Source: Amphiscolops sp. MND2022 (Eukaryota). Taken from it: DNA of 64,000 nucleotides. Location of the stretch: assembly GCA_964187785.1 (NCBI GenBank), contig OZ076409.1, forward strand, positions 4,218,001 through 4,282,000. Reading direction: 5' to 3'. The notes beneath the pieces are model-generated. The model was given only the letters and a program-made list of their open reading frames with translations, searched no databases and was not told the origin of the DNA. Positions 2,890-61,833 of the stretch are shown one piece after another (positions within the stretch are counted from its first letter, which is position 1; each line of letters opens with the position of its first letter). The translations under genes and the position numbers were made by a program.

Positions 2890-3592
2890 TTTTTAGTTCT
2901 CAGTTCAACATGAGAATTAATCTTTTGCGTCCTCTTGTACACACTAAAAAAAGACGATTTGGAAGAAGAGCTTCAGCGGCAAGAAGGCGGCGTTAGAAAA
3001 TTCAAGCGGTTCAAAAAAATTCAGATACCAGTCAACATTTGTTCAGAAATCGATCACATGTGAGAGGTGAAAAGACTTGAAAAAAAATTTCCTTCGACGA
3101 AAAACTTCATATGAAAGGAAGTCACTGTCAGAGATGAATAAGAATTTCTATGTGAACTAATAGGAATGAAATTGAAGACGAAGAGTCTTTTAGAATCGAA
3201 GTTTTTAAGGAGTAGAATTGGAAAAAAATTGAACGGTAGGGAAAACAAGGAGTGTTTGTTGAAAAAGTAAATTAAAAGTAAGAGTTTTTAAAAATATTGT
3301 GAAAGGCTCCCAAAGGAAGCAAGTTAAAGTTTAGTCAAGTAAAAGTGTAGGAGGTAGATTAAAATAATTAAAAGTGAGTTATAGCTTTTAAAATTGGAGT
3401 TGAGCGAGCACAAAGTTCGGGAAAACTTACAATGCTAGAGCAAATTTTTTATATTTCCTTCAAAATTAACGGTGGGAAACAAAAACATTTCATACAATTA
3501 AGTATGGAATCAAAAGGGGTTGGGGAGAGGAAAAATGAAAGGGTGGGGAAAAATAGAATTGTAGTAAAAAGTTTACAACAATTAAAATAAAA
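2890..3592. repeat. Diverged direct repeat, copy 1 (copy 2 at ~5334-5997); probably a decayed retroelement fragment
   Basis: Colinear shared blocks, e.g. tcttgtacacactaaaa, aaatcgatcacatgtgag, gaatgaaattgaagacgaagagtcttttagaatcg, agtttacaacaattaaaataaaag. No TG..CA termini seen. Boundaries approximate. Confidence 0.75.
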
Positions 3593-4028
3593 GTTTGTTT
3601 CTGTATATATCAGAAAAATTCTCAATCAACATCTTGGAGGGACTTCATCAACGGAGGAAGGTCATCAAGAAAATTGCGGGGGGTTGCGTGTAAGTCCTTC
3701 AATTTTGATGGCTATTAGCGCCGAGGTTGAGGGATGGAGGAAGAGGATGCAGATGAACAAAAAGCATGTGGCAAATGTGAACGTCGCAGGTGTAGGCTAT
3801 CATTGTAGTCAAATACGACAAATATTAGTGGGAATTTGTATGTTAAGAGGCAAAAATTGAATGGTCGCGTATGAGGGGATGTGTAATAAGTGAGTTTTGA
3901 GAGGGGTTTTGAAATATTAACAATAGTGTCAACAACTGCAGTAATTAAATTAGGTTCAGTGGCTTGCTCAAAAAGGACTTGGTCTATATATTGTCCATAA
4001 AGTTTTAGAAAACTGCCTGAAATGAAGA

Positions 4029-5330
4029 TTAAAACTGCCCAAAAATACTCGTACACATGTAAGGGAAGATAAAACGAACAACACTCACAGTTAGTCTCGC
4101 TTGCCCCCACTCGAAATCACTCAGAGTAGCCTGGTAATCTGTGAATGAGCTGAGCCGGGCCCAAAAGTTGTGGAGAAGGGAGACATCGCCTTGATTTTTG
4201 AGGAAGCCTCGTGTGATACACAACTGTGTTCTAGCTCGGGACTCTGCAGTAACGACGGCAGTAGTGTGGCCTTCCATGAAATGCTCGTAGAACGGGAATC
4301 TCTCTCCGATGTCTATGAGTTCTGTGTGTATGAACTTTGGCAGTTCTTCAGCAAGCTTCATCCTTGTATGATTTTTCAATCTCGTACCCTGACCCGGTGT
4401 TGCACTTTGTCAGTGACGGGGTCGACTGATTTGAGGTGCTCATATCTCCATCTCTGGTCCCGCTTCGGATGTTTTTCAGTACGATGGTGCCTCCGAATTT
4501 TCACTGTCGCCTTGGTCTTGATGGAGAAATTACGTTTACAAATGTGGCAAAGGACAATGAGGGGTTTGTGAATTGGATCAGCAGGCGCTGAAATAAAAGA
4601 CTTAGTCCAACCGATCTTCTTGAAAAGTTCTTCCCTCATGGGAACTCCACGCTGTATTGCCCTCTTCGTCCTCACGGTCTTCTTGGACTTGGGTTCACCA
4701 GTTACCCTCTCTACTTGGGTCTGTTTTTTTTCATTTCAAAGAGGGTGGCGTCTTGACTAGTAAAACCAGAAGATTCAATCCCTTCAGAAGCCATTTTGGG
4801 GGCGTTTTGCACACTTGCTGAGACGGTTGCTCCCTTGGCCGATGACCTCCTGAAGTACTCTGAGGTCACTGCCATTTCAGTGGTACCATCGCTCTTTTCG
4901 CAAATGGTCAGATTTCGGGTCTCCTCCTCCACGTTTATGTGCCCAAGTCCTGCATCATTCACGCTTGAATCAAGGCTGGAATCACTGTCTTCCATTCTTC
5001 CTGGAGTTTGAGCTCATGTCCGTTTTCTGAAATGCTTCGTTCTCGATTTAGCAGTGGTAGGAGTCCCTTTCAATGCTTCCAGGATCATGCGCTCTCTTTC
5101 GGAGTACGTCAGGCTCACGGTTTCATTTGTCAGTGTTTTCAGAATGTTGGTTGTATACTTGGACCTCCGTGGAAACTACTGTTGGATGCCCCATGGGAGT
5201 CAGAATGACCGTGTGGCTTCGAAATACCACTTTAGGAGGGCTCGACTGCACCTTGGAAGTTCGTGTAATTTGACCCACTGGGCCTGGGTATTCGTGGTTG
5301 CTTGCTCAACATGTCCCTCTGACAAACATC
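4029..5330 (-). pseudogene. Degenerate relic of the first long exon of the hAT-derived accessory gene (paralogue of 10096-12036)
   Basis: ORF fragments 4376-4675 (QRGVPMREELFKKIGWTKSFISAPADP..LCHICKRNFSIK..RHHRTEKH) and 4029-4379 (LPKFIHTELIDIGERFPFY..TDYQATLSDFEWG) align with the 660-aa ORF. 5060-5260 translates to SRALLKWYF/HPTV/LTNETV..ERMILEALKG, matching SRAILKTYF/HPTV/LTDETL..EQMILDAVRG. Frameshifts and stops present. Confidence 0.88.
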
Positions 5331-5333
5331 ATA

Positions 5334-5997
5334 GTTTTTAGTTCAACTTCAGCAATAATCTTATGCGTCGTCTTGTACACACTAAAAGAAATATGATGAC
5401 GTCAAGAAGGCGGCGATAGAAAAGTCAAAGCAGTTCAAAAAACAATTCAGATATTAGTCAACATTTCTTCAAAAATCGATCACATGTGAGGGATGAAAAG
5501 AGTTGAAAAAAAATCCTTCGACGAAAAACTTCATATGATTTAAAGTCATTGTCAGAGATGAGTATGCTTTTCTATGTGAACTAATGGGAATGAAATTGAA
5601 GACGAAGAGTCTTTTAGAATCGGGTTGAGGAGTAGAATTGAAAAAAGTTTGAACGGTAGGGAAAACAAGGAGTGTTTGTTAAACAAGTAAATCAAAAGTA
5701 GGAGTTTTTAAAAGTATTGTGAAAAGCTCCCAAAGGGGGCAAGTTAAAGTTGTAGGAGGTAGATTAAAATATTTAAAAGTGAGTTTTAGCGTTTAAAATT
5801 GGAATTAGGCGAGCTCCAAGTTCGGGGAAACTTACATTGTTAGAGTATTTTTTTAATTTTACTTCGAAATTAACGGTAGGAAACAAAATCTTTTCATACA
5901 ATTAAGTGTGAAAACAAAAGGGGTTGGGGATAGGAAAAATGAACGGGTGGGGAAAAATTAGACTAGTAGAAAATAGTTTACAACAATTAAAATAAAA
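5334..5997. repeat. Diverged direct repeat, copy 2 (see 2890-3592)
   Basis: Colinear similarity to 2890-3592. Confidence 0.75.
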
Positions 5998-6437
5998 GAA
6001 TAACAACAATTAAAAACAATTCGGAATGCAGAGCTCTTGGAACATTTTGCATTGAACTGTATAATTTCAAAAGTTGGGTTTGAGAAGGTTTGAGAACCAA
6101 AATGTTTGGCTCTGTGTTGAAACATTTGCAACTATTGTGTTTGCTGCAGTTTATAATTTACATGTAAAAAGAGTTTGTAATCTTTTTATTCTCAACTAAC
6201 AGCCCTAATAATACTGATGACTAATAAACCGAGTACTGAAGTTCTTCGAAACCTATCTATAGTGGCTATTTTTGAACTAATCGGAGTGTCATGTAAAAAC
6301 TCATGTGATTTTTTTTAAAATGATAACTCATGAATTATAACTTGCAAATGTAATTTACTTTTTCTTGTGATTTTTCAATTTTATCAGTGATCCAATTCCC
6401 TAATCAAAATCTTCAGACGGTTTTTCCAGATGCGAGA

Positions 6438-7043
6438 TTAAGCTTCATGAACAGAATTGTCATGAACGTTTAGTTCAGGGTAATCATCGTTTAATTGATT
6501 CTCATACTGTCCGTTTCTTAAGCTACTCTTTGCGTTAAGATCTCGCTGAACTTCGGAATTTAGTTCCGGTCTCTCGGACGGAATGTCCCATCCCTTTCTG
6601 GTCCTGTGTCCTGATCTGGCCATGATAACATTTTGGATTTGAGGAAGTACTTGGGTACTTATCGCATCGTTTATGGCTCTCTGTATTTGGACGCTCACCG
6701 AATTCATCATTTCGTCCATTTCCCGTGAAATACGAGAGTTCAATTCGCTAGACAATCTGTTTATTTCAGCGCTAGAATCACCTGTGATAGAATTGCGATC
6801 ACATTCGGCATTCATCCTAGAGTCAATATTTCTCCTGGGTCTACCTCCGTTTCCGTCTTCAATATCAGACTCATTACTTGCAAAGCTCCTAGATCTCCTA
6901 GGTAAATTACTATTCAAGCTACCTTCTCTTTCTTGTGCACCAAAATGGTTTTCGCCTAACATGATATCCAGATTTTCAATATCGGATAACATCTCAAGTC
7001 CTCTAGACTTTCTCGCTTTCTTTTGCTTTCTAGTGGTGGGCAT
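6438..7043 (-). CDS. Truncated Gag N-terminus encoded in the 3' LTR, reading out 6 codons into flanking DNA
   Basis: 201-aa ORF nearly identical to aa 1-195 of the gag at 20165-21553; divergence begins exactly at the LTR end. Confidence 0.85.
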   Translation of the reverse strand: MPTTRKQKKARKSRGLEMLSDIENLDIMLGENHFGAQEREGSLNSNLPRRSRSFASNESDIEDGNGGRPRRNIDSRMNAECDRNSITGDSSAEINRLSSELNSRISREMDEMMNSVSVQIQRAINDAISTQVLPQIQNVIMARSGHRTRKGWDIPSERPELNSEVQRDLNAKSSLRNGQYENQLNDDYPELNVHDNSVHEA

Positions 7044-8353
7044 TGAAACAACTCCGAATCAACAATAAATTAATCAATACGGAAATAACAGCGTAGCCGT
7101 TTGGAAATCAATCTTTTCTAGAGTCGTATAGTATGAATTGTGTCCCGCTCAGGCTAAACACCGGTATTTATACCCCTGAGCGGGTGACACTCACATATTT
7201 TACATGTTTTCATCCAAGATTGACATCGTAAGGTATGTAATGCACTTGATTTTTACATATCTCTGGTATTTAACAGGTATGGTTTTGAAAGGTATTTGCA
7301 CCATAAGAATTTCCGTTTACATATTTCCTATATCATCGGAAAGCATCAATCACATATTTCTGTGAAATCCTGATTGGGAGAATTCCTGACATATTTGTCT
7401 CCCAAAATATAACATCAAACAATCAACATAATGCTAAATATCCTTAACGGTACTTCAAACAACATATCTATTCTACATATTATTATTGCAATGTCAACAA
7501 ATGTTAATCTCGTTGTTGGAATGCGAGGCTCGTGGCACTGGTATGCAGTGTTAACACGTGCCACCACGTGGCTATAGGTAAACGTAGGGGGAAGCAATTT
7601 CAAATAATACATGTCAAATCTATTTAAATATCACTACATTTCCCAAAAGGGCCGAAATTGGCCAAATCCTGATTAATTGCACAATACTAGGGGGAGAAAG
7701 GGTAAAAGACCTTATTCGGCCTTTGATCAGCATTTAGTTCATTTGGTCCCTTGAAGGGTACGTTGGTATTATTTCAATATTAAAACACCTCTAGAATAAT
7801 CCCCAACCAATATGGTTAATTATAGGGTACAGGTAATAAAGCATCATCCATTACGTTAAGACGGCCTAAGCCGGCCATTTGACCAAAGTACAAAACAATC
7901 CGTGGACATTAAGTTAATTGGCCATAATCGGCCGCTACCAAATCAAAGCCATATTTCACTCGTGAATTGAAGCGCTGTGATTGGTTGGAGGAATGAGCTC
8001 AAGTGACGTTTTTGGATTATTGCTGAGCGTCACTTGAACTCGTTTCCTTTACGTTGTACAGCTATATTGCTACGTATTACTTTCATAATCGCAAAGCACC
8101 TTTCAACTTTTGAACCACAATTACACTGTTTGGGTCTTCAAATGTAATTTTAACAGACTATTTTTTTATATGCAAATATATTAAGACTAGCAACATTAAC
8201 AAACGTACTATGTATTGTATAATCAAAATGGCAAAAAGTTTTTAAATTCCGTGTTTTAACCTGATCAATAGATGGGTAGTGTTCCGGGCACAAACTCTTG
8301 CCCGTTTGCCGATGTAGTCACTGTCGTACCGTCACAGGCGGCAGCCTGCGACA
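6458..8353 (-). repeat. 3' LTR of element 1 (1896 bp)
   Basis: About 98% identical by eye (~35 substitutions, one ~16-bp indel) to 20968-22878. TG...CA ends. Contains a copy of the first ~195 gag codons. Confidence 0.95.
7141..7189 (-). promoter_or_regulatory. Putative LTR core promoter: TATAAATA (7172-7165) inside an inverted repeat (5' LTR copy at 21651-21699)
   Basis: CCCGCTCAGG...CCTGAGCGGG perfect 10-bp arms flank the TATA box, ~125 nt upstream of the gag ATG; an Inr-like TTCATAC lies ~30 nt downstream of the TATA box. Confidence 0.55.
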
Positions 8354-9047
8354 CTGCGGGTGTGATGAAAAGAAAACAGCCAGCATTAAGTCCGTTTTCA
8401 TATGCTTCCTTTCTGAGTCTCGTGATGTATTCGGGTTCGTCTCTTGGTGTAGAACGCTGCATACACCATTTTACCTTTTCGTCTTTGATCGAGTCCACCG
8501 ACCGACCGCAAACCATGCATCCGGTATAAAGTACTTCGCTGACATTCTGGTAGGGTACTGAATTTTGTACATGGTATGACGCATGAAAGTTGCTCGGAGC
8601 TGGCCGGAGAAGGGGGGTGTCCACACTTGGACCCCTTTCGTGCTCTGGCGGGGACATAGGTGATTCCAAGACGGGCATTATTGTGTTACAGAGATCTATG
8701 CGCTTCTTCTCGAATTTCCTTGGCGGGGCATAGCACATTTCCCTATCAAAGTATTTAAGGCCCAGTTTCGGTGTCACCCCTTCTTCCATTTGAGATGTAC
8801 TTGGTCCAGCTCTCATTTCGTATTCGGGTTCATCCATAGTCATTACTCTGCTTCCGATTAACATTGGGCTAGACGTAACTTCTTTTTCAATCCGGACTAT
8901 CAGTTGCTCGGTGTCTGTCGAACAATCGGTTTCCCAGTCCGAGGACTCATCTTCACTACTGGATATGTAGATTACTGATTTACCGGAGTTATCAGAATCG
9001 TATTCTTCGAAGTCAAATAACTTCCTTGCGAGGTTATATTTACTCAT
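8265..9047 (-). CDS. Accessory ORF (260 aa) of element 1, sense strand, overlapping the 3' LTR
   Basis: Intact ATG ORF with acidic N-terminus, RKLF, VIYISSSEDE, PPRKFEKKR and CMVC motifs. The last ~29 codons lie inside the LTR. No family recognised. Confidence 0.8.
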   Translation of the reverse strand: MSKYNLARKLFDFEEYDSDNSGKSVIYISSSEDESSDWETDCSTDTEQLIVRIEKEVTSSPMLIGSRVMTMDEPEYEMRAGPSTSQMEEGVTPKLGLKYFDREMCYAPPRKFEKKRIDLCNTIMPVLESPMSPPEHERGPSVDTPLLRPAPSNFHASYHVQNSVPYQNVSEVLYTGCMVCGRSVDSIKDEKVKWCMQRSTPRDEPEYITRLRKEAYENGLNAGCFLFITPAVSQAAACDGTTVTTSANGQEFVPGTLPIY

Positions 9048-9929
9048 GATGGCTTTTTTCGCTATTTTGAAGCTTGTAGATGCAACTGTATCGTGATGAA
9101 GTTTTAGGGTAGAATGAATTTATCAAATCCGAGAGTTTAGCCGAGTAAGGTGTTTTCCCGAAGTTTCCAATTTGGCGGTTAGACCTCCGGTTAATCGTCC
9201 TGATCCGTCATAAACTTTTCAGAAAGGAATTCCATTATTAGTCGGCTCCCTTTGATGGCCTGATGTTTACCCTCCATCAGAGTCAACACTAGAAGAGGTG
9301 TGAATGACGCTCGACTTATGAATATCAACTACACCCGTCTCAAGTGGGTAATTAACGGGTCGCTTGTAAGCAATTAGCGGCACGCGTCACCAAAATTTCT
9401 CGCAATGGCTCCATCCAATCAGCGTTAAGCTTCGATAAATTGTAAAATTAAATAATAAAAATGGCGAAAATAATAAATCTAAATAATTCAAGATGGCGAA
9501 AATTCTAACTAAGGGTAACTGGACGAAACGGCAAAACAAGACAGGGCAAACGGCCATTACTGGCCTCTAACTAAATAAGCTGTAAACAACAAAGTTTTTT
9601 GTACACTTCGCTGGCAGACTCCATGTACAGAATAAATATGTAGATAATCCATAATATTAGTCTGGTAAGAATCTTCAGCCACGAACTCCAATCTTTCAAT
9701 TTTATTTCAATTCCATATTACTCCAATTCCATTTTTTTCCTGATCCCTCCGTATCCAATTCCTTATTTATTGAGTCTTCGTACGCACTTCCGGGCCTTCA
9801 ACTGCGCTGGTAGATCCCTCTTCCAGGCTTCGTCCGAAACTACCCATTTCCTCCGCCAATCTCGATCTTGTGTCTTGGCTATTCCACCCAGATTGGGACT
9901 GACTCCAAAAGGCAATTTCCTACAGCAGG
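9048..9929. promoter_or_regulatory. Putative internal bidirectional promoter region between the divergent accessory genes
   Basis: Non-coding interval between head-to-head ORFs; CCAAT (~9416) and two AA(A/G)ATGGCG YY1-like motifs (~9460, ~9490). Confidence 0.4.
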
Positions 9930-10095
9930 ATGTCTTCTAATCCAGGTTGGTTTCAGATTTATTTTGAACTAAGGTTTCAACTTGATCAGAGTTAAATCCT
10001 GTTCACTGATTGCTTCCTATTTCCAAAGTCAAACACGTGACAACACGTTTCATTCAATTTCACAAGTACTTCCGGAAGATTTCTAATGCGGTAAA

Positions 10096-13000
10096 ATGGA
10101 TTTCTTTCAAGGAAGCTCACCGCCAAATTTCATCTCTTTTTGTTTAGAGAATTATCCACCTGAAGATCAGACATTGCCTGCAGGTCCTTCTCAGACGCAA
10201 CCTCCCATGACCAGAGATGTTATTCCAGAAGTCCTTGCCTCGGCCAGTGCTTTTTATTCCCCACAAAGCGCCACTAGTGAGGTCGACGTTAATTCTTATG
10301 CTGACGCAATGGTACAGCACCTGGAATCCAAACAAGGAGCAGGCCAAGATAACCAAGCCACGGTCGGAGAAGAAGGAGAGTTAACGACCTCGGACGTTCT
10401 TGAAGGGCAGACGGACCAGGCGGTCCTGATACCTAGAGGAGCAAGCACCCCAATCCCCGTTGGAGGAACAGAAGAATCCCACTTGAGCCTGACAGCTTTG
10501 GAATCTGCGCTAGTAATCGCAACTTCTTCTGGTTCACAGTATCCTGAATTGTTGACAGCGGCAGAGGAAGTCCAGGGTGACCAATCTAGGACTGCTCCCC
10601 AATCCGAAGATGATAATACCTCTTCCGTGTATGAAGTGCCTGCCTTACCAGGTAATGAACCCAAAGTCCGTTTTTTAGCCGATCTGAGTGAAGGGGAGAA
10701 AACCTCAGAAGAAACCAGCAGTCTGGGAAAAACGGCATTGTATGGACACATCCCCGGCATTGATGAATCGGGAACTGAGGCGAGTGACGAGTCTGGACCG
10801 GTTACCCCACATCACCAGGACCCTATTGCTTCCACTTCCAGGGGACTAGATGACCAGTTGCCTGACTTGTCTGGGAGGTCACGAGCTATCCTCAAGACTT
10901 ATTTCTTGGAGGAGAAGGCCTTCAACCTTCCCCGAGGACACCCGACAGTAGCCTTCACTGAGCCGCAGATTTATCATTTGCTGCGGGTATTGACCGATGA
11001 GACTCTCAGAATGTCCCATACCAACATGGAGCAGATGATCCTAGATGCCGTTAGAGGTAGACCAACAGCGTTGCCATCACGGACTGATACCTTCCGTTCG
11101 AGAGCCCGAGCCGCGACTCCTTTCAGACAAGCTGAAAGTGATTCTAGCGATGCCGAAGCCGGGACGTTCACGTCTGGAGAATCGGACGACCAAGACACCC
11201 AACGTCATGCCGAGACAGGTGATTCGTCGTTTTCTGGTGGGAGTGACAGCGGAGGAGAAATGGCATTGATGTCAGCATCATATAAACCTGTCACAAGCCA
11301 CACTTGGGCCGAAACCGCTACTATGGTTGTAAGTGACGACCTAAGGGGCCAAGACACAGACCCTAGTAGTCAGGATGCTACCTTATCTGAAGTCAGGGAG
11401 CAGACCCTGAGTGGCAAGTCAAGGCGAAACACTCGAGCCAAGAAATCCCCAAAACCCAAACGACAGTCCCAACGGGGCGTGCCCATGCGCGAGGAGTTCT
11501 TCACCAAAATAGGGTGGACCAGATCCTTCATTTCCGGTCCCGCTGACCCTATTCATAACCCACATACGGTCTGGTGCCATATGTGTAAGAAGAACTTTTC
11601 AATTAAGTCCAAAGGTCCTCTTGAGATCCTCCGACACCACCGTACTGAAAAGCATCTGCGACGGGATCAGAGGTGTAGGTATGAGCACCTCAGGAGTGTC
11701 GACCCTGTGAGCGGGACGATTCAGCACCGAGTCAGAGGCCGTAATGGGAAAATCCTCAGTAAAATTGAGTTGGCGCGGGAACTGCCGAAGTTCATCCACA
11801 AAGAACTGATCGACATCGGGGAGCGTTTCCCGTTTTATGACGATTTCATCCGGGGCCGAACTACCACTTCAGTTACTCCCGAGTCGCGAGCCCGAACACA
11901 GCTGTGTCTGATTGGAGAGTACATCCCCAAACACGGCGACCTGTCAGTCCTCAGGAGAATGTGGGCGATGATCAGCTCATTCACCGATTATCAAGCTGCA
12001 CTCTGCGACTTTGACTGGGGGGAAGAGAGAGTGACTGTAAGTATTAGTGATAGCAGTAATAGAGACTTTAGGGCGTAAACCCAGGGGGTTTCTTCCTCCC
12101 ACGAACCGTGTTTTATTTTTCTGTGGTTTGTAGTTCAAGAGTGTATTTTTCAAGAGTGTTGTAGTATCTACATCTGTATACAAGTCCCCTCGTACGTGTA
12201 CTAATCTCGTTGTATTCCCGTCCAGTCTTAAGTGTCCTCCGATTGGCAATTCGAATCCGATTTCACATAGTGTTTCCCATTTCAGGCGATATTTCAACAT
12301 TTCTTCAATTGCGCCTTACAGAACATTGCTGAGCACGTAGCTTCGGAACAATGCTTTAGCCTGGAGTTCGAAGACAGTGGGACCAGCAGGTTCATGTCCC
12401 TGCGATTCTGGAAGGGTCGGGAACTCTGCAGAGTGACAGTGTGCAGAAGTGGACTACCGTCTTCGGACTTAGTGGGCGAACTGGGGTCCCTAGCCCGACT
12501 GTTCTCAGTGGTCTCTACCAAGGCAGATATAGTTGCCTGTTCGGGTTGTCCCGCTGAACTGCTCCGGACCATAGATGAAATGCCGACCACTACCAGGGCC
12601 GTGCAAAGCTGTTTTCGCTTCAGCCAGTTGGACCTGCCTCACCTGATGCATAAACTCAGCTACAGTGTTTTTGGCCATATTGATTTCTTTTCCGTGCTCA
12701 AAGGCCTCGTGATTTCCCTAGGCAGTTCTCTCCGCGAAGATTGGGTACAAAGGAGTCCTGAACTAGTTCGAGTTAGTGTCTTTCAATCATTTGGTGAAAT
12801 CTAAATAGGGAGGGGATCCGAGAATTGTACATCTGCGTAATATTTACCACCATACTTTCTCTTTTAGGCCATTTCCAGTTGCAGATTAGATCTCCAATCC
12901 CTCCCCACACTTTGCCAGGAACTCATAGATGAGTGGAAGTCGATCACGACTCACTTGACTTCTCGCGTTCCCCAGCCGCAAGGACAGGGGGTTAGGACAA

Positions 13001-14425
13001 GGGTGAGTTATGTGCCAAGTTCCCCCTTCAGCAAAATTGTAATCACCATAACCAGCTTGTCGAGCGTTGTAGGGTTGATAATAGGTGTCACTTCCTCCGT
13101 TTTTTGTTCCAGGTTCAAAGTTTCGAGTGGTCCCTCATTTGTGATGAGTTCTTCCTTGTCAAACTGGAGTTCTTTTACCACCTAATCAGCGATTGTACGT
13201 GTTCTACGGTGAATTTTAAGACTTTTCCTTTGGGGCCGGAACAGACCATTTTCTTGTTTCAGACACTTCCACTTTCGTCATCAACTTGCAGCGGCGGCGC
13301 GATTCCTCCTTTTACCTCTGTGGTGAGGTTTCCCGTTATATCTATAATTTGTGTTTCCGCTGTTACAACTCTGACACAATCCCCCTCGAGAATTCGTGGT
13401 TTCTCCTGCTAGGGTTCCAGATTACAGAGGGAACGTTCATGCCTGTGGAGGAGTTCCTAACCCGACTCCAAATGACAAACAAGGTGGCCCGAGCCTGTAA
13501 ATTGAAAGCAGAAGGCATCCATTCAGGGAAGAAAGTGGACAAGTCACTCGTCCAAAAGACCGCCTCAACAATGAAGGCTGAGTTCGTCCGAGATGGGCAA
13601 GCATACCTGCAGTACCTGATTGGCGAAGTCCTCCGACAAGCTGGGCTAAGCTCAAACATCGTTAAAGGGCTCGCTGCTTTTGACCCTTTCATTATGCTCA
13701 GAAGGCCTACAGAAGTGGCGCTCCGTCATTTTGACGTTCTCTACAGTACCTTCCTTCTCCGCTCATGGGTGACATCTTCCAATGAGTCTGCTTGTCGTGA
13801 CGAGTATGTTGGACTACTCGGCCACCTGCATGGCAATTATGCTCCTGATTTCGATATCACTCAACATTTCCGGGACTTAATCGATTTCCTCATGTCTCTC
13901 GAGTATATGCAGAACCGCGTTCATTTAGTGCATTTGTTCAAACTATGTTGTCTCTGTGCCACCTCCTGCAGTCCTGGTTACCCCATTGTCACTATGGGGA
14001 CACTTAACACAACAGGCTTCCAAAGTCGGTCCACTGACGTTGTTTTGCCTGCACAGAGCTATTTGTCCCGGGTACCAGAGTCCCTTGCTTATTGCGTTAC
14101 TGACCAGAAACTCAGTGATTTTTCGCTACTGGCTGCTTCCTTCGGGCGATCAGCTTTCTCACCAGAGTACGATCCATGGACCCACGTTGATGTCTTTGGG
14201 CGGGGTAAGATCTTCAAGTCTCTGGTTTCAACCTATCGCAGTGCCTCTTCTGATTCTGCTGAGCGGGTAAGAGGACTGGACAATCCAAATGTATCCATCA
14301 TGGGGGACGCGCCTGCTGTTCAGCCTCCCAGTGACACTAAACGAAGGCGTATGGAGAGAAGCTCATCAAGGTCGAGGGCCTCTTCTGTTACTCGGGAACT
14401 CACTCCTGGTTCTTCTAACCTTTAA
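10096..14425 (+). CDS. Spliced antisense accessory gene, hAT-transposase-derived (~1268 aa): exons 10096-12036, 12286-12771, 12868-13002, 13113-13194, 13263-14425; possible extra 5' mini-exon 9930-9945 spliced to 10148
   Basis: Four GT-AG introns (GTAAGT..TTTCAG, GTTAGT..TTTTAG, GTGAGT..TTCCAG, GTACGT..TTTCAG; phases 0,0,0,1) join the separate ORF-track pieces into one stop-free frame of 3807 nt. It has a CxxC-x17-H-x5-H zinc finger and hAT-like blocks (FSLEFEDS..MSLRFW, LIDEWKSI, DEFFLVKLEFF, LAAFDP, LVHLFKLCC). Confidence 0.85.
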
Positions 14426-14680
14426 GTGTACAAATGTATTTATGTACACTATTTCTGTAAACTTTGTTTATTTCTGTTATGATTTTTTCATTTCCATTTG
14501 TTTCTTTTGATTTCTTGATCCCATATTTATTCTCTCGCAAGGAATCCTTGGAATGCCCCATTATTTATTAAAAAACGCTTGAGGGGTTAAAAGATAAAAG
14601 AGATAGAAGAAAAGAACTCCTATTGTCGGGAAAATTCAATTCTTTAGTATCTAAAGTCTTCTGAGTAGTTTGGGGTAGGG

Positions 14681-17050
14681 TTAGGCCTGAGATTTCCCTC
14701 CTCTAGGGCTCAGACTTTCATTTCTAGCATCGCTTTCAGATATTTCGGGCACGATAATATCATCCCCCCTTTTTGGAGAATTCTGTGCGTCGTTTTCATT
14801 CGTCAAATTTCTTTCTGTGGGAATTTCATCATTTTTTGGTTTTTCATCCGTATTCGGCAAAGTTTTTTCTTGATTTTTCGGGTGAACGGCCGGATTCGGC
14901 CAATCAGATTTGTCATTGCTAGCCGCTTCACTGGCTTCTTTCCTTTTTGTGACGTCATGATTTAATCTTTCATTCCGGCTCCGCGCCGCGTGGTCAGCGT
15001 AACTTGTTTCGTCACTCGTGATTATGTAATCCGCTTCGTTCTCGGTTACGTCATTTGTATTCGTTTCTGCCGCATTCGGTTGCTCGCCATTCGGCATGCT
15101 GGTCGGAATAGTCTCGTTGCCTCGTGTAACTAGCTGCTCGCCAAAGTCGGTTTCCCACGTTATGACGTATAAATCATCTTGCGGAATGACAATTTCTTCG
15201 TCTGGCTGCAATTGTTGTTCTTGGAACTTGTCCTCAAGACGCTGATTAGGGACAAACTTTTTAAGGCGAATTCGATGTAATATTTGAGTCTTGTTTGTGT
15301 TGATTCGTCTCACGATATAATTTTCGTTAGGTAAAACTTTTTGGACTATAAATGGTCCAACCCACCGATAATCGCGGAATGGAATTTTTGATCCTTGATT
15401 GTCCGTTTTCGGCTGTAAGACAAAACAGTATTCGTTCTCCTTTAGTGGAGCGGCTTTTGCTTTGCGGTCGTAATATTCTTTGTACTTGATATACGACTGC
15501 ATAATGTTCTGCTTCGTTTTGTCAATCAGGATTTTTGTCCGGTTTTGGATTTCTTCAGCAAATTCGGTTGTGGGGTTAATTTGCTCGTTTGGATTATTTC
15601 CAAGCTTGTGATCCAAAATATTAAATGGAATTCTTCCATGAAATACTCTCGTTGGCTCACAACCGATTCTGGCGTGGTAAGTAGTATTATGATTCAGTAC
15701 TGCTAATGGCAAGTATTTGTGCCATTGTCGGCGATATTCTCCACATGCCATTTTGAGATTTGTTTTCAATGAGGCATGAGTTCGCTCCAATTTCCCAATT
15801 GTCTGCGGGTGTTTCGTCGTTGCACATTTGAGTGTGATGCTCAAAATCTGCGTAACCTCCGCAATAATTGTAGAAGTAAATGCAGTACCTTTATCAGTGA
15901 TAAGAGTCGTTGGTAAATATGAGTGTTTAGTAATGATGTCAATGAGCGCTTTTGCTACATTGATCGCTGATGCGTCCGTAAGGGGATATGCGAACAAATA
16001 TCGGGAAAATACGTCTATTGCTGTTAGGACATTTTCATACCCTCCACTTGGGGGGAGATTCGGTAAAAGGTCGATTTGCATGGCGTCTTCAGGTCCAAGG
16101 TCCCATTCGGGCAAGTTGAGCAGCTCAGGTGTCATCGTTGCGTTAGGGACTCTTTTGTCTCTGGCACATTGTTCGCACCCTTCTACCCACTTTTTGACGT
16201 GTTTAGCCATGCTAGGGTAGTAATACCTCTGTCGAATTTCCTGTAACATTTTTGAAATCCCAGGATGTTTATGTGCTGTCCCGTGGAGAGACTTAAGGAG
16301 TTCCTGAAGTAAATGTTGCGGGAGTAAAATTTGATGGTATTTAACATTCCCTGTTTCATCGAAATATTGCCTTGTCAGGATTTCGTCCTTTAGTACAATT
16401 CGTTCCAGATTGTTTGCGTAATGTCTATATCGGGCATCCTGATGCAGTAGATTTTCTGAATACTCTTCATGAAGCAGTTTTGCTTTCAATTGTTGTAGTA
16501 CCACATCTTTGGATTGTTCGATAATGATCTGGTTCGTTCTCTTCAATCGGACCTGTATGTCGGGGTGTTGCTTGACCAGACTTGTTGACAGAGTTTGTAT
16601 AGTAACAGTGGGCTCATCAGTTGCTGGATTTTTCCTGATTGCTTCTTTTCTTGCCCACAACTGTTCTTCTGTCTCATCTTCGTCATTGGTGTAGAAGATT
16701 TGTTCTTCTTGTGACACCCCTGCGGATTGGACATTGATTTCGATTGGTAGTGTTTGTACATCTTCACGAATTTTGATCACCAATTTGTCCTTCGGATCTG
16801 CTTCCAATCGGGACAAATAGTCGGCAGCTGTATTTTGTGCTCCCGGGATGTGCGCTATGACAAAATTGAACTGGATAACATAGTCACATGCGTTCCACAG
16901 TGCTGGGGGTATTATTTTCGTTTGGAAAAATCGTGTTACAGCTTTGTTGTCCGTAAGGATGATGACCGGTTTCGGCGCACCCCAGAAGATATGTCCAAAT
17001 TCTTTGAATGCAAAATAAATTGCAAGGAATTCCTTGGCATAAATTGACAT
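14681..17050 (-). CDS. pol: Pol, 3' part: RNase H C-terminus, integrase, GPY/F module and acidic tail (frameshifted from the 5' part)
   Basis: KEFLAIY..ILTDNK..ADYLSR (RH); H-x4-H..CEQC zinc-binding motif; QID, ITDKG, KLER (DDE); WVGPF. The native C-terminus probably continued in another frame as ..LRPNPTPNYSEDFRY* to ~14644. Confidence 0.95.
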   Translation of the reverse strand: MSIYAKEFLAIYFAFKEFGHIFWGAPKPVIILTDNKAVTRFFQTKIIPPALWNACDYVIQFNFVIAHIPGAQNTAADYLSRLEADPKDKLVIKIREDVQTLPIEINVQSAGVSQEEQIFYTNDEDETEEQLWARKEAIRKNPATDEPTVTIQTLSTSLVKQHPDIQVRLKRTNQIIIEQSKDVVLQQLKAKLLHEEYSENLLHQDARYRHYANNLERIVLKDEILTRQYFDETGNVKYHQILLPQHLLQELLKSLHGTAHKHPGISKMLQEIRQRYYYPSMAKHVKKWVEGCEQCARDKRVPNATMTPELLNLPEWDLGPEDAMQIDLLPNLPPSGGYENVLTAIDVFSRYLFAYPLTDASAINVAKALIDIITKHSYLPTTLITDKGTAFTSTIIAEVTQILSITLKCATTKHPQTIGKLERTHASLKTNLKMACGEYRRQWHKYLPLAVLNHNTTYHARIGCEPTRVFHGRIPFNILDHKLGNNPNEQINPTTEFAEEIQNRTKILIDKTKQNIMQSYIKYKEYYDRKAKAAPLKENEYCFVLQPKTDNQGSKIPFRDYRWVGPFIVQKVLPNENYIVRRINTNKTQILHRIRLKKFVPNQRLEDKFQEQQLQPDEEIVIPQDDLYVITWETDFGEQLVTRGNETIPTSMPNGEQPNAAETNTNDVTENEADYIITSDETSYADHAARSRNERLNHDVTKRKEASEAASNDKSDWPNPAVHPKNQEKTLPNTDEKPKNDEIPTERNLTNENDAQNSPKRGDDIIVPEISESDARNESLSPRGGKSQA

Positions 17051-19848
17051 CTTGATCTGTGCTGTGCTGGGGTGAAGGTTTTTGATCCATATGCGACCGG
17101 GGCATACGATTTTCTGAGTGATGTAAACTTCTGGCTTGGGTCGTCTTTGATTAGGACCGCGTACCCGGCTGCACCAAAACTTGCATCAGTCATTAGTGCT
17201 ATTTGCTTGTTGGGAATGGGTTGCTGTAGGGCCAAGTCGCAACATTTGTCTAGTGCTCTGTTGATTTCTTCGAATTGTTGGACTAATTTTTTCGATACTA
17301 GGACCTTTTCGTCACTTTTGAGCATTTTGTAGAATGGAGCAAGGCGTTCGGAGAGTCTTGGGACATAATTCCTGTAGTAGTTTAGGAATCCCAAATAGCG
17401 CTGTAAAGCCTTTTTCGACTTCGGGAATTTGGTCTTTTCCGGAAAGTTTTGCACATTCTGTTTCTGGGGTTTGACGCCTTGTGGGGTAATAGTCCGTCCG
17501 AGAAAATCAATTTCTTTTTCACCGAAGTGACATTTGTGCATTGTTAACTTAAGGCCTGCTTCCTGAATGCATTTGAACGTAGCTCTCAGGTTCGTCATGA
17601 GGTGATCAACATCATTGGCTGCGATGCCGATATCGTCCACATATTGGGCACACTGATCCGCTTTAATGACTTTGTCAAGGTATTCTCTCATGAAACTTGA
17701 GGATAGTGACCGACTAAGGCCTTGTGCCAATCGCCTGTAAGCGAATGTGCGACTGGCAAAATTGAAAGCCAACATTTCGATTGAGCGTTGGCCGGCCATT
17801 GGTAGGCAGTGGTATGCCTGCGAACAGTCTAATTTACAGAACAGTTTTTTGCCTGCCAAGTGTTGGGCAGCATCAACTAGAGTACTGACGGGGTGATTAT
17901 TGTTGATATAATCATCCGAGATGAGGTTGTTGATTTTTCTCAAGTCAACCAAGAGTCGGAGTTTCCCATTCGGTTTCTTTTGTGCGAATATTGGACTCGC
18001 ATATTTCGAAAATGGCAGTGTAGTTTTTATGCTATATTTGTGTAACATGGCTAATTCAACTAGGATGTCCTCCTTCAAGTTGATAGGAGCTGGAAGACTT
18101 TGACTATAGGCTGGGGAATCGCCCTTAGGCGTCAGTTTCACTTTGAATTCCTCGTTCATGCCTATATCAAATCGGTGTCGTGCAAAAATGTCATGGAATT
18201 CCACTAACAATTCCTCAATTTTCTCCTTTTCTTCAGGAGTAAGGGTGGAATTTTTCCAATCAAAGTTTTCTAAGAATTTTGCACGCGATTCTGCATCTGT
18301 AGTGGGGTCGAGTGTCTCCAGGTCCTGTAGGGCCTGTAACTCGCGTAGGATTCGTTTTTGTATAGGTGTGTGTTCCTCAGGATTTCCAGGATTTTCTGGA
18401 GTTGGGAACCAGTAATTTTCCGACTTTTGAGGATTTCTGTTTGTCTTGATCAGACTGCTGACAAAGTGGGCTGCCTGTTCTTGGTCGTTTTGCAAGAGGT
18501 GCCAGGTTGATGCCGGATCTACCGGTTTGACATATTTCATCTGCTCTGGCGTCATGACTGAGAAATTGGCAATGTGAAGTCCCTTTTTGAGTTTATAAGA
18601 ATGGTCTGTTAAATTGTTCACTGGTATCATTATGTTGCCATCATTCAGAGTGACCAAAGCTGGGCAAAATGTGATGTCGCCTTCTTTATGTAGAAGGTCG
18701 CTCGGTTGTAAAATTCCAGTGACAGCATTCTCAGAGTAGAGTAGGGAATTGGTCCTAATTAGGACTTTATCGTTTGGTGGAATAGTTATCTCAATAGGGT
18801 TGAGAATTGGTTCCAATACATTTGAATACTTATGGTCAGCTGTTTTGAGCTGCATCGAAAAGAACGGGAAGGTCAGTATCCCTTGTCTCATGTCCAGCAC
18901 TGTATGGTTTCTTTGAAGGAACATTAGTCCAATAATCGGACCTGTCAGATGTTCCATCACTATGAAGATTTCATGGAACTCAATGTCACCAACTTCGAAT
19001 TTGAGCTCTATGGTACTCTTAGGAGTTTCCAGTTGCCCATTAGCGACCATGATTTGGAAATTCGGAAGCGGACCTTCCCGGATAACGGATTGTGGAGATA
19101 AAAGTCGGATTTTCCGGAGGTCCATTTCAGGAATTGCACTGGACAGCGCTCCAGTGTCAATGAGTCCGTCAATGGTCAATTCCCCAAAGTCCATTAGGAA
19201 ATACAACATGCGTTTTTTGCATTTGAGGTTGATGTTGGTTGACAGGGGTACACAGTCTCGTTCACCGTCTCTGGTGATTAAGACTTTTTGGAACTGTTTC
19301 TCGTCTAGCAATGATTGTGGTATGGGTTCAACATTGCTGTCATGGGTCTCAGTCCCCAATGGGTTTGGGAACACTGGATGGTTTGTGCCATCATTCATTT
19401 GCCATTTTTCAATTAGCGCTCTTGTTTTCTTGTTATGGGTAATTGGAGGGTTCTGGTGGACTGTTCTATTATAGTGTTCAATATCGTCCAGGACATATTG
19501 AAATTGTAGTGAATCTTGGTTGTAAAGCTCGGTGTCCCAGTAGGGATCTCTGCCGTAGTCTGGATCGATGTATGTTGGATTGTAATCATCGATTAGGGGA
19601 ATGGGCCTGAAGCGGGTGGTGAAGGTAGTGGTGTAATCAGGGTCCCAAACAGGAATTGGTTTCTGGAATAAATGGGTGTTATTGTAGGTGATGATGGTAG
19701 CTTTTTCCATCTGTTGCTGCCAGACAACAGAGGGATAGCCCATCAATTGCTGATTGTATTGGTGGAAAGTTTGTGTTGGAGGGTCCGATCTGATGTACTG
19801 TCGGACAGAAATTATTTCGTTATATTGGAGTCGTGGCGAAGTTAGTTT
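16936..19848 (-). CDS. pol: Pol, 5' part: aspartic protease, reverse transcriptase and RNase H N-terminus
   Basis: LIDTGA (protease), LRLLVDLRKIN, LAQGL, YVDD (RT), TDAS (RH). The frame is open from the gag-terminal slippery site; frameshift lesion near 17055. Confidence 0.95.
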   Translation of the reverse strand, partial: KLTSPRLQYNEIISVRQYIRSDPPTQTFHQYNQQLMGYPSVVWQQQMEKATIITYNNTHLFQKPIPVWDPDYTTTFTTRFRPIPLIDDYNPTYIDPDYGRDPYWDTELYNQDSLQFQYVLDDIEHYNRTVHQNPPITHNKKTRALIEKWQMNDGTNHPVFPNPLGTETHDSNVEPIPQSLLDEKQFQKVLITRDGERDCVPLSTNINLKCKKRMLYFLMDFGELTIDGLIDTGALSSAIPEMDLRKIRLLSPQSVIREGPLPNFQIMVANGQLETPKSTIELKFEVGDIEFHEIFIVMEHLTGPIIGLMFLQRNHTVLDMRQGILTFPFFSMQLKTADHKYSNVLEPILNPIEITIPPNDKVLIRTNSLLYSENAVTGILQPSDLLHKEGDITFCPALVTLNDGNIMIPVNNLTDHSYKLKKGLHIANFSVMTPEQMKYVKPVDPASTWHLLQNDQEQAAHFVSSLIKTNRNPQKSENYWFPTPENPGNPEEHTPIQKRILRELQALQDLETLDPTTDAESRAKFLENFDWKNSTLTPEEKEKIEELLVEFHDIFARHRFDIGMNEEFKVKLTPKGDSPAYSQSLPAPINLKEDILVELAMLHKYSIKTTLPFSKYASPIFAQKKPNGKLRLLVDLRKINNLISDDYINNNHPVSTLVDAAQHLAGKKLFCKLDCSQAYHCLPMAGQRSIEMLAFNFASRTFAYRRLAQGLSRSLSSSFMREYLDKVIKADQCAQYVDDIGIAANDVDHLMTNLRATFKCIQEAGLKLTMHKCHFGEKEIDFLGRTITPQGVKPQKQNVQNFPEKTKFPKSKKALQRYLGFLNYYRNYVPRLSERLAPFYKMLKSDEKVLVSKKLVQQFEEINRALDKCCDLALQQPIPNKQIALMTDASFGAAGYAVLIKDDPSQKFTSLRKSYAPVAYGSKTFTPAQHRSRCQFMPRNSLQFILHSKNLDISSGVRRNRSSSLRTTKL

Positions 19849-21553
19849 TTTGACTCATCATTAGAATATGAGGATTGGGAGCCCGATGATGTCGGTTTGG
19901 TCTGAGGTTTCTGAGCCTTGGGATTGGGCTTATTGTCAGTTGCGTCCTCAGGTCTAGTGCGCTTGGGTTTAAGATGTGCACCAGCACCTTGCCAACATCT
20001 CTCCTCCGGGTGGTTCTTTTTCCCACAAGTGCCACACTCCGGATATGTTTTCTTCTGCGTCGACTTGCCTTGTTGGGCATCTTTTTCTTTTTCTTTTTCA
20101 GTTTTTTGCAGTCCTTGACCATGTGGCCCTTTTCCTTGCAGTAATTGCAAGTAATGTCTGACATTTATCCAGTGGACAGAGGAGTTTTAGATTTTGTAGT
20201 CGAGGAGGTCATTGTGGCCATTGGTAGGTCATCTGACTCCTCGAGGGCGTTAAGCTCTAATTCTCTCTCCAAATGAGCAACTATCTCATCGTAGGAGCCA
20301 TTTTCTAATCTGGCCATGTTGACGGACCGCTTCAGTTTTGGTGGCAGTTTTGCATAAAGCAAGCTGTCAATCATTTTCTGCGCATGATCACCAAACGCCT
20401 TCTCGGCTCCCTGGTTTAATTCTTCGAGAAAATCAGGCAGTTTCATTGTATTGGGATCGAAGACCAGACGGTGCCATTTATGTTTGGCAGTCGCCTGTGA
20501 CTCGGGTTTGAGGTATTTTTGTCTAAAAATGACTAATACGTCCTCTATAGTTTGTCGGTTGCTTGAGCTGATATTTCTGAATGTCTGAAGAGCATTCTTT
20601 CTCAATAAAGAGTGGAAGTGGTTGATCTTCATTTGCTCAGTCATTTCTGGCTGCATCTTGATCATAGTGTGAAATAGGTCTTCGAACAGCTCGAATTTTT
20701 CGCTTTTGCCATCGAATGTCATGGTATTTGAGTTGACTGGGCGTATGGTACGTTGTTGGGCTGTCGGTCTATTCTGCATTGTAGTCAAGACGTCTGCCAG
20801 TCGAGTGATGGAGTCAGAGTCAGCAGCCGTGGTGATTCTCTCTTGTGCTGGGATCGCCGTGTCGAGGTTGATGTCCTCAAAGGACCTGTCGAGATGATTT
20901 CTGGATGAGATTCGTCCTGTGAGAAACTCAGGAACTTGATTTGGAGATTCGTTGTCTCCTGTCACCATGTCATGAACGTTTAGTTCAGGGTAATCATCGT
21001 TTAATTGATTCTCATACTGTCCGTTTCTTAAGCTACTCTTTGCGTTAAGATCTCGCTGAACTTCGGAATTTAGTACCGGTCTCTCGGACGGAACGTCCCA
21101 TCCCTTTCTGGCCCTGTGTCCTGATCTGGCCATGATAACATTTTGGATTTGAGGAAGTACTTGGGTACTTATCGCATCGTTTATGGCTCTCTGTATTTGA
21201 ACGCTCACCGAATTCATCATTTCGTCCTTTTCCCGTGAAATACGAGAGTTCAAATCGCTAGACAATCTGTTTATTTCAGCGCTAGAGTCACCTGTGATAG
21301 AATTGCGATCACATTCGGCATTCATCCTAGAGTCAATATTTCTCCTGGGTCTACCTCCGTTTCCGTCTTCAATATCAGACTCATTACATGCAAAGCTCCT
21401 AGATCTCCTAGGTAAATTACTATTCAAGCTACCTTCTCTTTCTTGTGCACCAAAATGGTTTTCGCCTAACATGATATCCAGATTTTCAATATCGGATAAC
21501 ATCTCAAGTCCTCTAGACTTTCTCGCTTTCTTTTGCTTTCTAGTGGTGGGCAT
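19842..21553 (-). CDS. gag: Gag with two zinc knuckles (premature stop at 20165-20167, frameshift near 20095)
   Basis: Capsid-like FDGKSEKFELFEDLF region; CNYCKEKGHMVKDC and CGTCGKKNHPEERC knuckles. ATG is at 21553, inside the 5' LTR. Confidence 0.92.
19845..19851 (-). promoter_or_regulatory. Programmed -1 ribosomal frameshift site A AAA AAC (gag to pol)
   Basis: TCA AAA AAC TAA ends gag; the -1 frame reads LTSPRLQYNE..QQLMGY without stops into pol. Confidence 0.8.
20956..20967 (-). promoter_or_regulatory. Primer-binding site TGGTGACAGGAG (tRNA-Leu-like), located within gag
   Basis: TGG immediately follows the CA end of the 5' LTR. 11/12 match to the common animal tRNA-Leu PBS TGGTGTCAGGAG (tRNA identity tentative). 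Confidence 0.75.
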
Positions 21554-22878
21554 TGAAACAACTCCGAATCAACAATAAATGAATCAATACGGAAATAACA
21601 GCGTAGCCGTTCGGAAATCAATCTTTTCTAGAGTCGTATAGTATGAATTGTGTCCCGCTCAGGCTAAACACCGGTATTTATACCCCTGAGCGGGTGACAC
21701 TCACATATTTTACATATTTTCATCCAAGATTGACATCGTAAGGTATGTAATGCACTTGATTTTTACATATCTCTGGTATTTAACAGGTATGGTTTTGAAA
21801 GGTATTTGCACCATAAGAAATTCCGTTTACATATTTCCTATATCATCGGAAAGCATCAATCACATATTTCTGTGAAATCCTGATTGGGAGAATTCCTGAC
21901 ATATTTGTCTCCCAAAATATAACATCAAACAATCAACATAATGGTAAATATCCTTAACGGTACTTCAAACAACATATCTATTCTACATATTATTATTGCA
22001 ATGTCAACAAATGTTAATCTCGTTGTTGGAATGCGAGGCTCGTGGCGCTGGTATGCAGTGTTAACACGTGCCACCACGTGGCTATAGGTCAACGTAGGGG
22101 GAAGCAAATTCAAATAATACATGTCTAATCTATTTAAATATCACTACATCACCAGATAAGGGTATTTCCCAAAAGGGCCGAAATTGGCCAAAAATTGATT
22201 AATTGCACAATACTAGGGGAGAAAGGGTAAAAGACCTTATTCGGCCTTTGATCAGCATTTAGTTCATTTGGTCCGTTGAAGGGTACGTTGGTATTATTTC
22301 AATATTAAAACACCTCTAGAATAATCCCCAACCAATATGGTTAATTATAGGGTACAGGTAATACAGCATCATTCATTACGTTAAGACGGCCTAAACCGGC
22401 CATTGGACCAAAGTACAAAACAATCCGTGGACATTAGGTTAATTGGCCATAATCGGCCGCTACCAAATCAAAGCCATATTGCACTCGTGAATTGAAGCGC
22501 TGTGATTGGTTGGAGGAATGAGCTCAAGTGACGTTTTTGGAATATTGCTGAGCGTCACTTGAACTCGTTTCCTTTACGTTGTACAGCTATATTGCTACGT
22601 ATTACTTTCATAATCGCAAAGCACCTTTCAACTTTTGAACCACAATTACATTGTTTGGGTCTTCAAATGTAGTTTTAACAGACTAATTTTACATATGCAA
22701 ATATATTAAGACTAGCAACATTAACAAACGTACTATGTATTGTATAGTCAAAATGGCAAAAAGTTTTTAAATTCCGTGTTTTAACCTGATCAATAGATGG
22801 GTAGTGTTCCGGGCACAAACTCTTGCCCGTTTGCCGATGTAGTCACTGTCGTACCGTCACAGGCGGCAGCCTGCGACA
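20968..22878 (-). repeat. 5' LTR of element 1 (1911 bp)
   Basis: Matches 6458-8353; TG...CA; flanked by TSD AGAAT. Confidence 0.95.
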
Positions 22879-23087
22879 AGAATCTAATTCAATCCCAATT
22901 TCAAACAATCTTTTGCCAGGATCTGGTGAGACGAACGAATTGAAGTTAGCGTAAAAGTAAAGAAGCATCAATTGGCTTCTTCACGAAAGTTCATTATTCT
23001 AGCGCAACCGAAGAATCAGTGATTTCAGGTAAAATAGAAATTCCAGAGAATGTTTGAATTGGATTACGTAGGGTCCAAACTTTTTCA

Positions 23088-61550: not shown

Positions 61551-61626
61551 AGACAGGAAGAAAATGGTGACAAAGACAGCTCGTTGGTGGACACAATTAA
61601 AGAAGATTGCCCAAGGAGACAAACCG

Positions 61627-61833
61627 TATAGTGAATCTGGGAGATTGAGATATTGTGACTCTGGGAGACGGAGCTACTGTTTATCGGAGAGTTTGGGTTA
61701 TTGCATCTCTGGGAGCTTCAAATATTGTGTCTTTGAGAGATTGGGCTATTGTGACTCTTGGAGTTCGGGTTATTGTGACTCTGGGAGTTTGGGCTATGGT
61801 GACTGTGGGAGTTTGGGCAATTGTGACTTTGGA
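61627..61833 (+). repeat. 24-bp minisatellite (~8.5 copies, consensus TATTGTGACTCTGGGAGTTTGGGC)
   Basis: Visible periodicity; translates as YCDSGSLG repeats in ORF 61441-61992. Confidence 0.85.

Follow-up and report, generated by a model that had tools for sequence, protein, structure and literature searches.

An antisense gene, probably derived from a hAT transposase, within a Gypsy retrotransposon of Amphiscolops sp.

A spliced gene of probable transposase ancestry lies antisense within a complete Gypsy retrotransposon in the genome of Amphiscolops sp. MND2022, in a 64,000 nt stretch of contig OZ076409.1 (positions 4,218,001 to 4,282,000, assembly GCA_964187785.1) referred to here as the window. 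The gene (10096-14425, +) specifies a protein of 1,268 aa in five exons, with a final stop only and no internal stop, and the element that encloses it runs on the minus strand from 22878 to 6458. Its frame is open even though the gag and pol frames of the same copy are frameshifted, and at the sequence level it is intact, real and borne by the retrotransposon. The reading we favour, tentatively, is that of an antisense Gypsy accessory gene whose product likely traces back to a hAT transposase, likely cannot cut DNA and may act in the nucleus on its own family, either activating it in a sequence-specific way or countering its silencing.

The initial annotation had placed a captured transposase at 12286..14000, an extent that is too short. 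The full gene is made up as follows, the introns being predicted ones:

10096..12036 (+), exon 1: acidic, Ser-rich N-terminus (aa 1-450), BED-like C2H2 finger and likely dimerisation region; 39-member cluster
12037..12285 (+), intron 1: GT-AG, 249 nt
12286..12771 (+), exon 2: first half of an RNase H-like core, according to the structural model
12772..12867 (+), intron 2: GT-AG, 96 nt
12868..13002 (+), exon 3
13003..13112 (+), intron 3: GT-AG, 110 nt
13113..13194 (+), exon 4: 82 nt
13195..13262 (+), intron 4: GT-AG, 68 nt
13263..14425 (+), exon 5: putative helical insertion domain, region of the third carboxylate, conserved extra C-terminal module, basic tail

A four-exon model without the 82 nt exon (13113-13194) contained 11 stops and was dropped; the five-exon model was chosen because omission of this exon breaks the frame. 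Three of the four splice junctions are uninterrupted in natural relatives, where they are read through without a spacer: exon 2/3 in P0206 (intron 2 absent), exon 3/4 in P0286 and P0072 (intron 3 absent) and exon 4/5 in P0246 (intron 4 absent). At the exon 1/2 point, P0150 and P0177 carry an unrelated spacer of 24-25 aa, and intron 1 is about 75 nt there. Introns differ among subfamilies in presence and length, introns 2, 3 and 4 each being absent from some relative. The donor position of exon 1 is common to the gene and a divergent copy (the 4080-5271 fragment described below), and at the edge of exon 2 mean conservation falls from 0.73 inside to 0.13-0.31 from the third column beyond its end.

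Structural comparison and catalytic positions

The model of exon 2 (predicted local distance difference test, pLDDT, 54) consists of a helix, three strands, a helix and a strand. The hAT transposase Hermes takes nine of the first ten rows in a Foldseek search with this model (best E 3.8e-3), and is first among 48,161 chains with VIA (Z 5.7, root-mean-square deviation 4.5, 125 aligned residues), tied with integrases. For the exon 5 model (pLDDT 58), Hermes ranks fourth (Z 6.4, root-mean-square deviation 5.6, 137 aligned, model residues 11-238 to Hermes 378-572) and is the sole row that spans both parts of the model; a Foldseek search with it gave no match. Hermes is the best or sole full-span match to the putative RNase H-like core, with its helical insertion ahead of the third carboxylate, at modest scores (Z 5.7-6.4, Foldseek E 3.8e-3), in keeping with the earlier description of a captured transposase. 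In feature-atlas comparisons, the clusters Dimer_Tnp_hAT and FAM200/GTF2IRD2 scored 0.90 on few shared counts. Descent from a hAT transposase is probable, since these individually weak signals agree and fall in the right order along the protein. Exon 2 has no similarity to the integrase of the element itself and is therefore not a duplicate of it.

Catalytic positions were placed by gap-free projection from the alignment end points, using the positions D64 and D116 of HIV integrase:

12364..12372 (+), E674-F-E676, region of the first carboxylate: Glu instead of Asp
12541..12546 (+), S733-G734, region of the second carboxylate: lacks a conserved acid
12610..12621 (+), C756-x-x-F759 in place of CxxH: placed by motif and spacing
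13976..13981 (+), G1120/Y1121, region of the third carboxylate: non-acidic, D+E in 38/216 and 1/217

The DDE triad had been called eroded from the motifs FSLEFEDS, VACSGCP and CLCATSCSPGYP, all of which are present in the spliced frame, as is the KRRR of the C-terminus. Residues D180, D248, R318, W319 and E572 are required in Hermes, according to the available text of PMC6027215. The first carboxylate (Hermes D180) projects to aa 674-676, within the motif FSLEFEDS at aa 671 (12355). Among the 120 matches listed of 165 exon 2 relatives, to which all counts for exon 2 columns refer, an acid is retained here (E674 in 98/104, E676 in 102/104) and Asp is found in 0/104. The second (D248) projects to aa 733-734 of VACSGCP (aa 730, 12532), where S733 is conserved in 117/120 with an acid in 0/120, G734 in 113/120 with an acid in 4/120, and the adjacent C735 is replaced by an acid in 5/120. 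At the CxxH motif, placed by motif and spacing, C756 is present in 115/119 and F759 in 119/120, with His in 0/120. The putative RW position in exon 3 (Hermes R318-W319), placed from the motif only, reads D817-L818, and no RW occurs in the relatives of exon 3 or 4. The third carboxylate (E572) projects to aa 1120-1121, downstream of the start of CLCATSCSPGYP at aa 1111 (13949), and this register agrees with R1137 (181/219) as the equivalent of R588. No column between aa 1109 and 1137 exceeds 40% D+E, and E[RS]xFS is present in 0/269 exon 5 relatives. D728, E738 and D1140 were considered as substitute acids and rejected by position only, the first lying where the strand begins, the second in the helix after it and the third about 20 residues beyond the projected Glu.

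The alignments indicate that the acid loss holds in every register tested and that it is family-wide, not the decay of a single copy. Because the second and third acids and the CxxH His are missing across relatives, the protein very probably has no transposase activity. The claim of erosion therefore stands for the second and third carboxylates, but not for the first, which carries a conserved Glu (E676), and the comparison of the exon models with Hermes revealed no intact acidic triad. Judging from column conservation, the catalytic residues are better described as replaced and fixed than as eroded, since Glu keeps the first position acidic and the replacements are conserved like catalytic residues.

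Flanking regions, relatives and selection

A zinc finger, WCHMC..HHRTEKH, lies at aa 493-520 (11572-11655; C494-x2-C497..H514/H515..H520). Its hAT-type pattern (CxxC..H-x4/5-H, aa 494-520; 11575..11655, +) is retained in 6/6 full copies, which bears out the initial annotation. The Pfam family zf-BED does not match the finger, and in the feature atlas its look-alikes are BED, zf-C2H2_12 and FAM200, with scores under 0.9. The first 450 aa were correctly described as acidic and Ser-rich (D+E 15-17%, Ser 11-15%, and K+R just 5% over the first 300), but part of this extension is not of low complexity, with aa 254-435 still alignable to a divergent copy at 37% identity. At the opposite end, the basic cluster KRRR (aa 1241; 14339..14350, +) resembles a nuclear localization signal (NLS), and at least four K/R within seven residues are present in 99/111 full-length tails, so that the tail noted in this copy recurs among relatives. 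Beyond the hAT-like part, a module at 14054-14230 (+; QSY..DPW..D.FGR) is retained to about 27% identity; it was modelled with low confidence, and no match to it was found.

Relatives of exon 5 number 217 among 2,932 candidates and those of exon 2 number 165 among 212, the 120 matches listed for each exon being all from ENA assemblies. A profile search with a limit of E 0.001 returned 666 representatives, the most remote of which are about 26% identical. The 130 long exon 5 relatives form 21 groups at 50% identity (single linkage), and even the most distant rows (26-30% identity) have their motifs intact. No relative of 677-2000 aa scored, which is weak evidence. Locus searches of viral and prokaryote genomes and of phages found none, and that of metagenomes gave one false match, a succinate dehydrogenase operon.

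Codon comparisons were made with a second copy in the window:

4080..5271 (-), broken, truncated exon 1 fragment of a divergent subfamily

Between the finger regions of the two copies, 22/22/73 differences fall at codon positions 1/2/3 over 107 codons (proportion of nonsynonymous differences, pN, 0.19; synonymous, pS, saturated), and the dN/dS ratio is 0.21 over an overlapping stretch of 114 codons that includes a misaligned part. The evidence for the core is at the protein level. Together, core conservation and the codon pattern in exon 1 point clearly to purifying selection on the gene, the lack of which on the core would have counted against the initial annotation. The fragment is flanked by two 700 bp direct repeats (2894-3593 and 5332-5998, 84%).

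The carrier element and its linkage to the gene

Pfam matches follow one another in Gypsy order (gag, protease, reverse transcriptase, RNase H, integrase), and the carrier has the characters of a Ty3/Gypsy long terminal repeat (LTR) retrotransposon. Its parts are:

20968..22878 (-), 5' LTR: 1911 bp, TG..CA (TGTC start, GACA end), holds the first 195 gag codons
6458..8353 (-), 3' LTR: 1896 bp, TGTC start, GACA end
22879..22883 (-), 5' copy of the target-site duplication ATTCT (5 bp)
6453..6457 (-), 3' copy of the target-site duplication ATTCT (5 bp)
20950..20967 (-), primer-binding-site-like TGG..: directly after the 5' LTR, within the gag frame
20165..21553 (-), gag: frame broken near 20170
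14640..19854 (-), pol (protease, reverse transcriptase, RNase H, integrase): frame broken near 17050 and 14680
8265..9047 (-), second extra open reading frame (ORF), 260 aa: sense to gag-pol, end within the 3' LTR, no Pfam family
9048..10095 (no strand), 1 kb spacer between the two divergent extra genes: putative internal two-way promoter, from the layout

The two LTRs have diverged by 1.8% (Kimura two-parameter distance 0.018). They are peculiar in their length (1.9 kb) and in overlapping two reading frames, gag at its first 195 codons and the second extra ORF at its last 29, with the primer-binding site inside the gag frame. No polypurine tract was seen ahead of the 3' LTR (8354-8383, -), where the sequence is pyrimidine-rich instead, with CAG at the LTR edge, resembling a splice acceptor. 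A weak dUTPase-like match (Pfam E 0.058) lies between protease and reverse transcriptase at 18550-18800 (-), and no tRNA genes were found.

The hAT-like gene (+) and the 260 aa ORF (-) both lie between pol and the 3' LTR, head to head over the spacer, which is likely an internal two-way promoter. The second ORF product is acidic, contains a CxxC motif and belongs to an 80-member cluster. Observed/expected CpG is 0.97-0.98 in the LTR and spacer and 0.98 in the second ORF, compared to 0.69-0.87 for exons, pol and flanks; the undepleted CpG of LTR and spacer is offered as a lead only.

There are 39-42 near-identical copies of the gene. Contigs were matched by their length among the members listed, 13-15 per cluster. 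The 31 contigs listed for the nearest subfamily include those of 5/14 listed members of the second-ORF cluster and 4/12 of the contigs listed for the LTR-borne gag piece. Compared to 0/73 for five other subfamilies, this gives Fisher p values of 5e-5 (second ORF) and 2e-4 (gag piece), or 3e-4 and 2e-3 when one near-identical contig is left out. Exact look-up with the pol frames gave no match, and the linkage rests on the second ORF and gag piece. The gene also shares its 3' flank with a relative of 53% identity. In the nearest subfamily, it has the position of the antisense accessory genes termed aORF-3R, lying antisense between pol and the 3' LTR and being kept across copies.

A second, broken Gypsy element is found at 34247-57710 (-), with LTR-like repeats of 284 bp (95%). 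Its env-like gene matches a Monjiviricetes fusion glycoprotein family (PF24664, E 2e-18 at 42458-43696) and is partly tandem-duplicated. This mononegaviral-type gene and the spliceosomal introns would fit an animal host. At 61441-61992, a 24 bp tandem array lies within an open frame of 183 aa with no Pfam family.

Possible functions and related systems

The protein is likely the DNA-binding regulator of its own element, because the likely cutting residues are missing in hundreds of relatives and the zinc finger is kept; location, open frame, acid loss, selection, retained finger and basic tail were all counted in support. Under such a scheme, a hAT element would once have inserted backwards in the 3' internal region and then lost its ends. 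Introns in an antisense gene would persist through reverse transcription because the packaged genomic RNA would be the other strand. The protein would enter the nucleus, where its finger could bind short motifs in its own element, as the BED domain of Hermes binds AAG(T/C) repeats (PMC10368747, available text). The dead core would be a dimerising scaffold and the acidic N-terminus an activation region. The LTR upstream region or internal promoter would be the target, and family promoters would be switched on or un-silenced. Binding of short repeats is described for BED domains in general in the same text, and that of 10.64898/2026.08.24.746577 describes transposases that activate cognate copies and lose DDE upon co-option. 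One candidate target was noted:

7648..7935 (no strand), cluster of seven GGCC sites: candidate binding sites upstream of the TATA box in the LTR, at a distance of 470-770 bp

This is the densest such cluster in the window (7 sites against 2.1 in simulations, p 0.006 before correction). In the internal promoter, k-mers were no more enriched than in shuffles. Two ATGGCG(AAA) motifs, which presumably resemble a YY1 site, occur within a 32 bp duplication at 9445-9503 in the putative internal promoter.

Several points weigh against a hAT-derived regulator. All fold scores are of a size that the tool rates as common (Z below 8, and no Foldseek E value below 0.001), and the models are mediocre, with pLDDT of 54 and 58 overall and under 50 around the second and third carboxylate positions. 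None of the exons, and none of the sets of 47, 72 and 63 aligned relatives, matched a hAT family in Pfam, and sequence searches of the PDB with three profiles gave nothing meaningful. The GGCC cluster was picked post hoc and is a lead only, no VANC-type tandem array was found in the LTR or internal promoter (two-copy, low-score repeats only), and linkage to the LTR element covers the nearest subfamily only. The alignments also indicate that the whole 700 aa dead core is conserved, which exceeds the needs of a simple activator.

The constraint on a target-handling core and insertion domain, along with the NLS-like tail, would also suit an integration or nuclear-entry helper, in which the inactive protein, bound to cDNA of the element or to target chromatin, would serve as a tether that brings the integrase complex to preferred sites. 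DNA-transposon accessory proteins have been modelled in such roles (PMC13547354, available text), but the long acidic N-terminus suits activation better, and we regard a tether as unlikely. Rather less likely is a negative regulator or decoy, which would repress its own LTR (copy-number control), poison active hAT transposases as a dead subunit, or soak up a host silencing factor without sequence-specific binding. The available texts report that antisense products of retroviruses and retrotransposons can regulate either way (PMC7264820) and that hAT proteins oligomerise (PMC10368747), whereas no active hAT near enough for pairing was seen (E[RS]xFS in 0/269 relatives), and amplification of the family has given each subfamily dozens of copies. 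It is improbable that E674/E676, S733, C756 and the invariant cysteines form a remodelled site for a metal or nucleic acid that retains some nuclease activity or binds RNA: the replaced residues are nearly invariant (E 102/104, S 117/120, F 119/120, C700 120/120, C1111 212/220, C1113 205/219), but two of three carboxylates are absent, and in the hAT protein Kat1 single DDE mutants are dead for cleavage and CxxH is required for hairpinning (PMC4763223, available text). It is very improbable that the gene is a passenger without a role in the retrotransposon, either a hAT transposon that nested there recently or a piece of a host gene, for while the element context is placed for the nearest subfamily, not the deep ones, and no LTR element can be recognised around the 4080-5271 fragment, no terminal inverted repeat (TIR) pair or 8 bp duplication around the gene was present among the 25 longest of 213 inverted pairs (short TIRs could escape), 39-42 near-identical copies co-occur with element genes despite being unable to move themselves, and the 3' flank is common to the 53%-identical relative.

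Returning to the reading as an accessory regulator, the same order of finger, putative RNase H-like core and helical insertion is found in Hermes and other hAT transposases and in ZBED, FAM200 and GTF2IRD2, which are look-alikes by fold and feature. Domesticated hAT forms retain DNA binding and lose catalysis (PMC10368747, available text). Unlike hAT transposases, the gene lacks DDE, the CxxH His and visible TIRs, and has a 450 aa acidic N-terminus and an added C-terminal module; unlike hAT-derived host genes, it is multicopy and retrotransposon-borne, not a fixed host gene. By its sequence characters it is neither an active hAT transposase nor a VANC homolog.

The closest parallels in position are found in plants, where Gypsy elements carry antisense genes in the interval from pol to the 3' LTR (TRP28/Transposase_28 in Retand, gene23 in Grande, and one in RIRE2), and in fungi (brtn); these genes have the same orientation and are kept across copies. 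They are proposed to be nuclear regulators with their own promoter (PMC7264820, PMC11963269). These two sources and 10.1101/2021.04.13.439636 report such genes from Boty as well as Retand, Grande and RIRE2; in their available text the origin of the genes is given as unknown, nested insertion of a transposable element as unsupported, and similarity to other transposable elements as not found. The present gene differs in having what is probably a whole, recognisable class II transposase body of 1,268 aa with four predicted introns, and PF04195 does not match it. Spm TnpA and VANDAL VANC resemble it by function only, as element-encoded factors acting in trans on cognate copies; both belong to DNA transposons, and no homology with the gene was found. 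TnpA is reported as transposase-derived, and such regulators are described in Spm and MuDR (10.64898/2026.08.24.746577); the words 'LTR' and 'retrotransposon' do not occur in the available main text of that source. VANC acts via tandem-repeat target motifs (PMC5735166, PMC13547354, available text), whose arrays, as noted, were not seen here. The gene may, we infer by analogy, act like these accessory regulators. Foamy virus Tas is small, sense-strand and served by an internal promoter; the likeness lies in an accessory gene toward the 3' end and what looks like an internal promoter, the sequences are unrelated, and the comparison is an analogy only. The analogies with VANC and Tas drawn in the initial annotation are thus functional and find no support in sequence.

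Antisense accessory genes and transposase-derived regulators are thus each known, and a whole hAT pseudo-transposase in an LTR retrotransposon was not found in the literature searched for transposase capture, in which subscription papers and Repbase-type annotation were thinly covered. It is conceivable, though doubtful as a whole, that an ancient Gypsy clade, hundreds strong, domesticated a complete class II transposase as a dead-hAT, sequence-specific transactivator or anti-silencer, with protein and LTR motifs co-evolving by subfamily. If true, this would be a VANC-like counter-defence in animal retrotransposons and would give an antisense accessory gene a traceable origin. The origin and function of such genes in LTR retrotransposons are called open questions in the available text of PMC7264820 and PMC11963269; here the origin may be readable, as a DNA transposase, with family-wide catalytic loss, and the subfamilies, at least 21 in number, would be natural protein-target pairs. 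The co-option of transposases as regulators would then extend from hosts and DNA transposons to a retrotransposon, with a bearing on how animal-type LTR elements might counter silencing.

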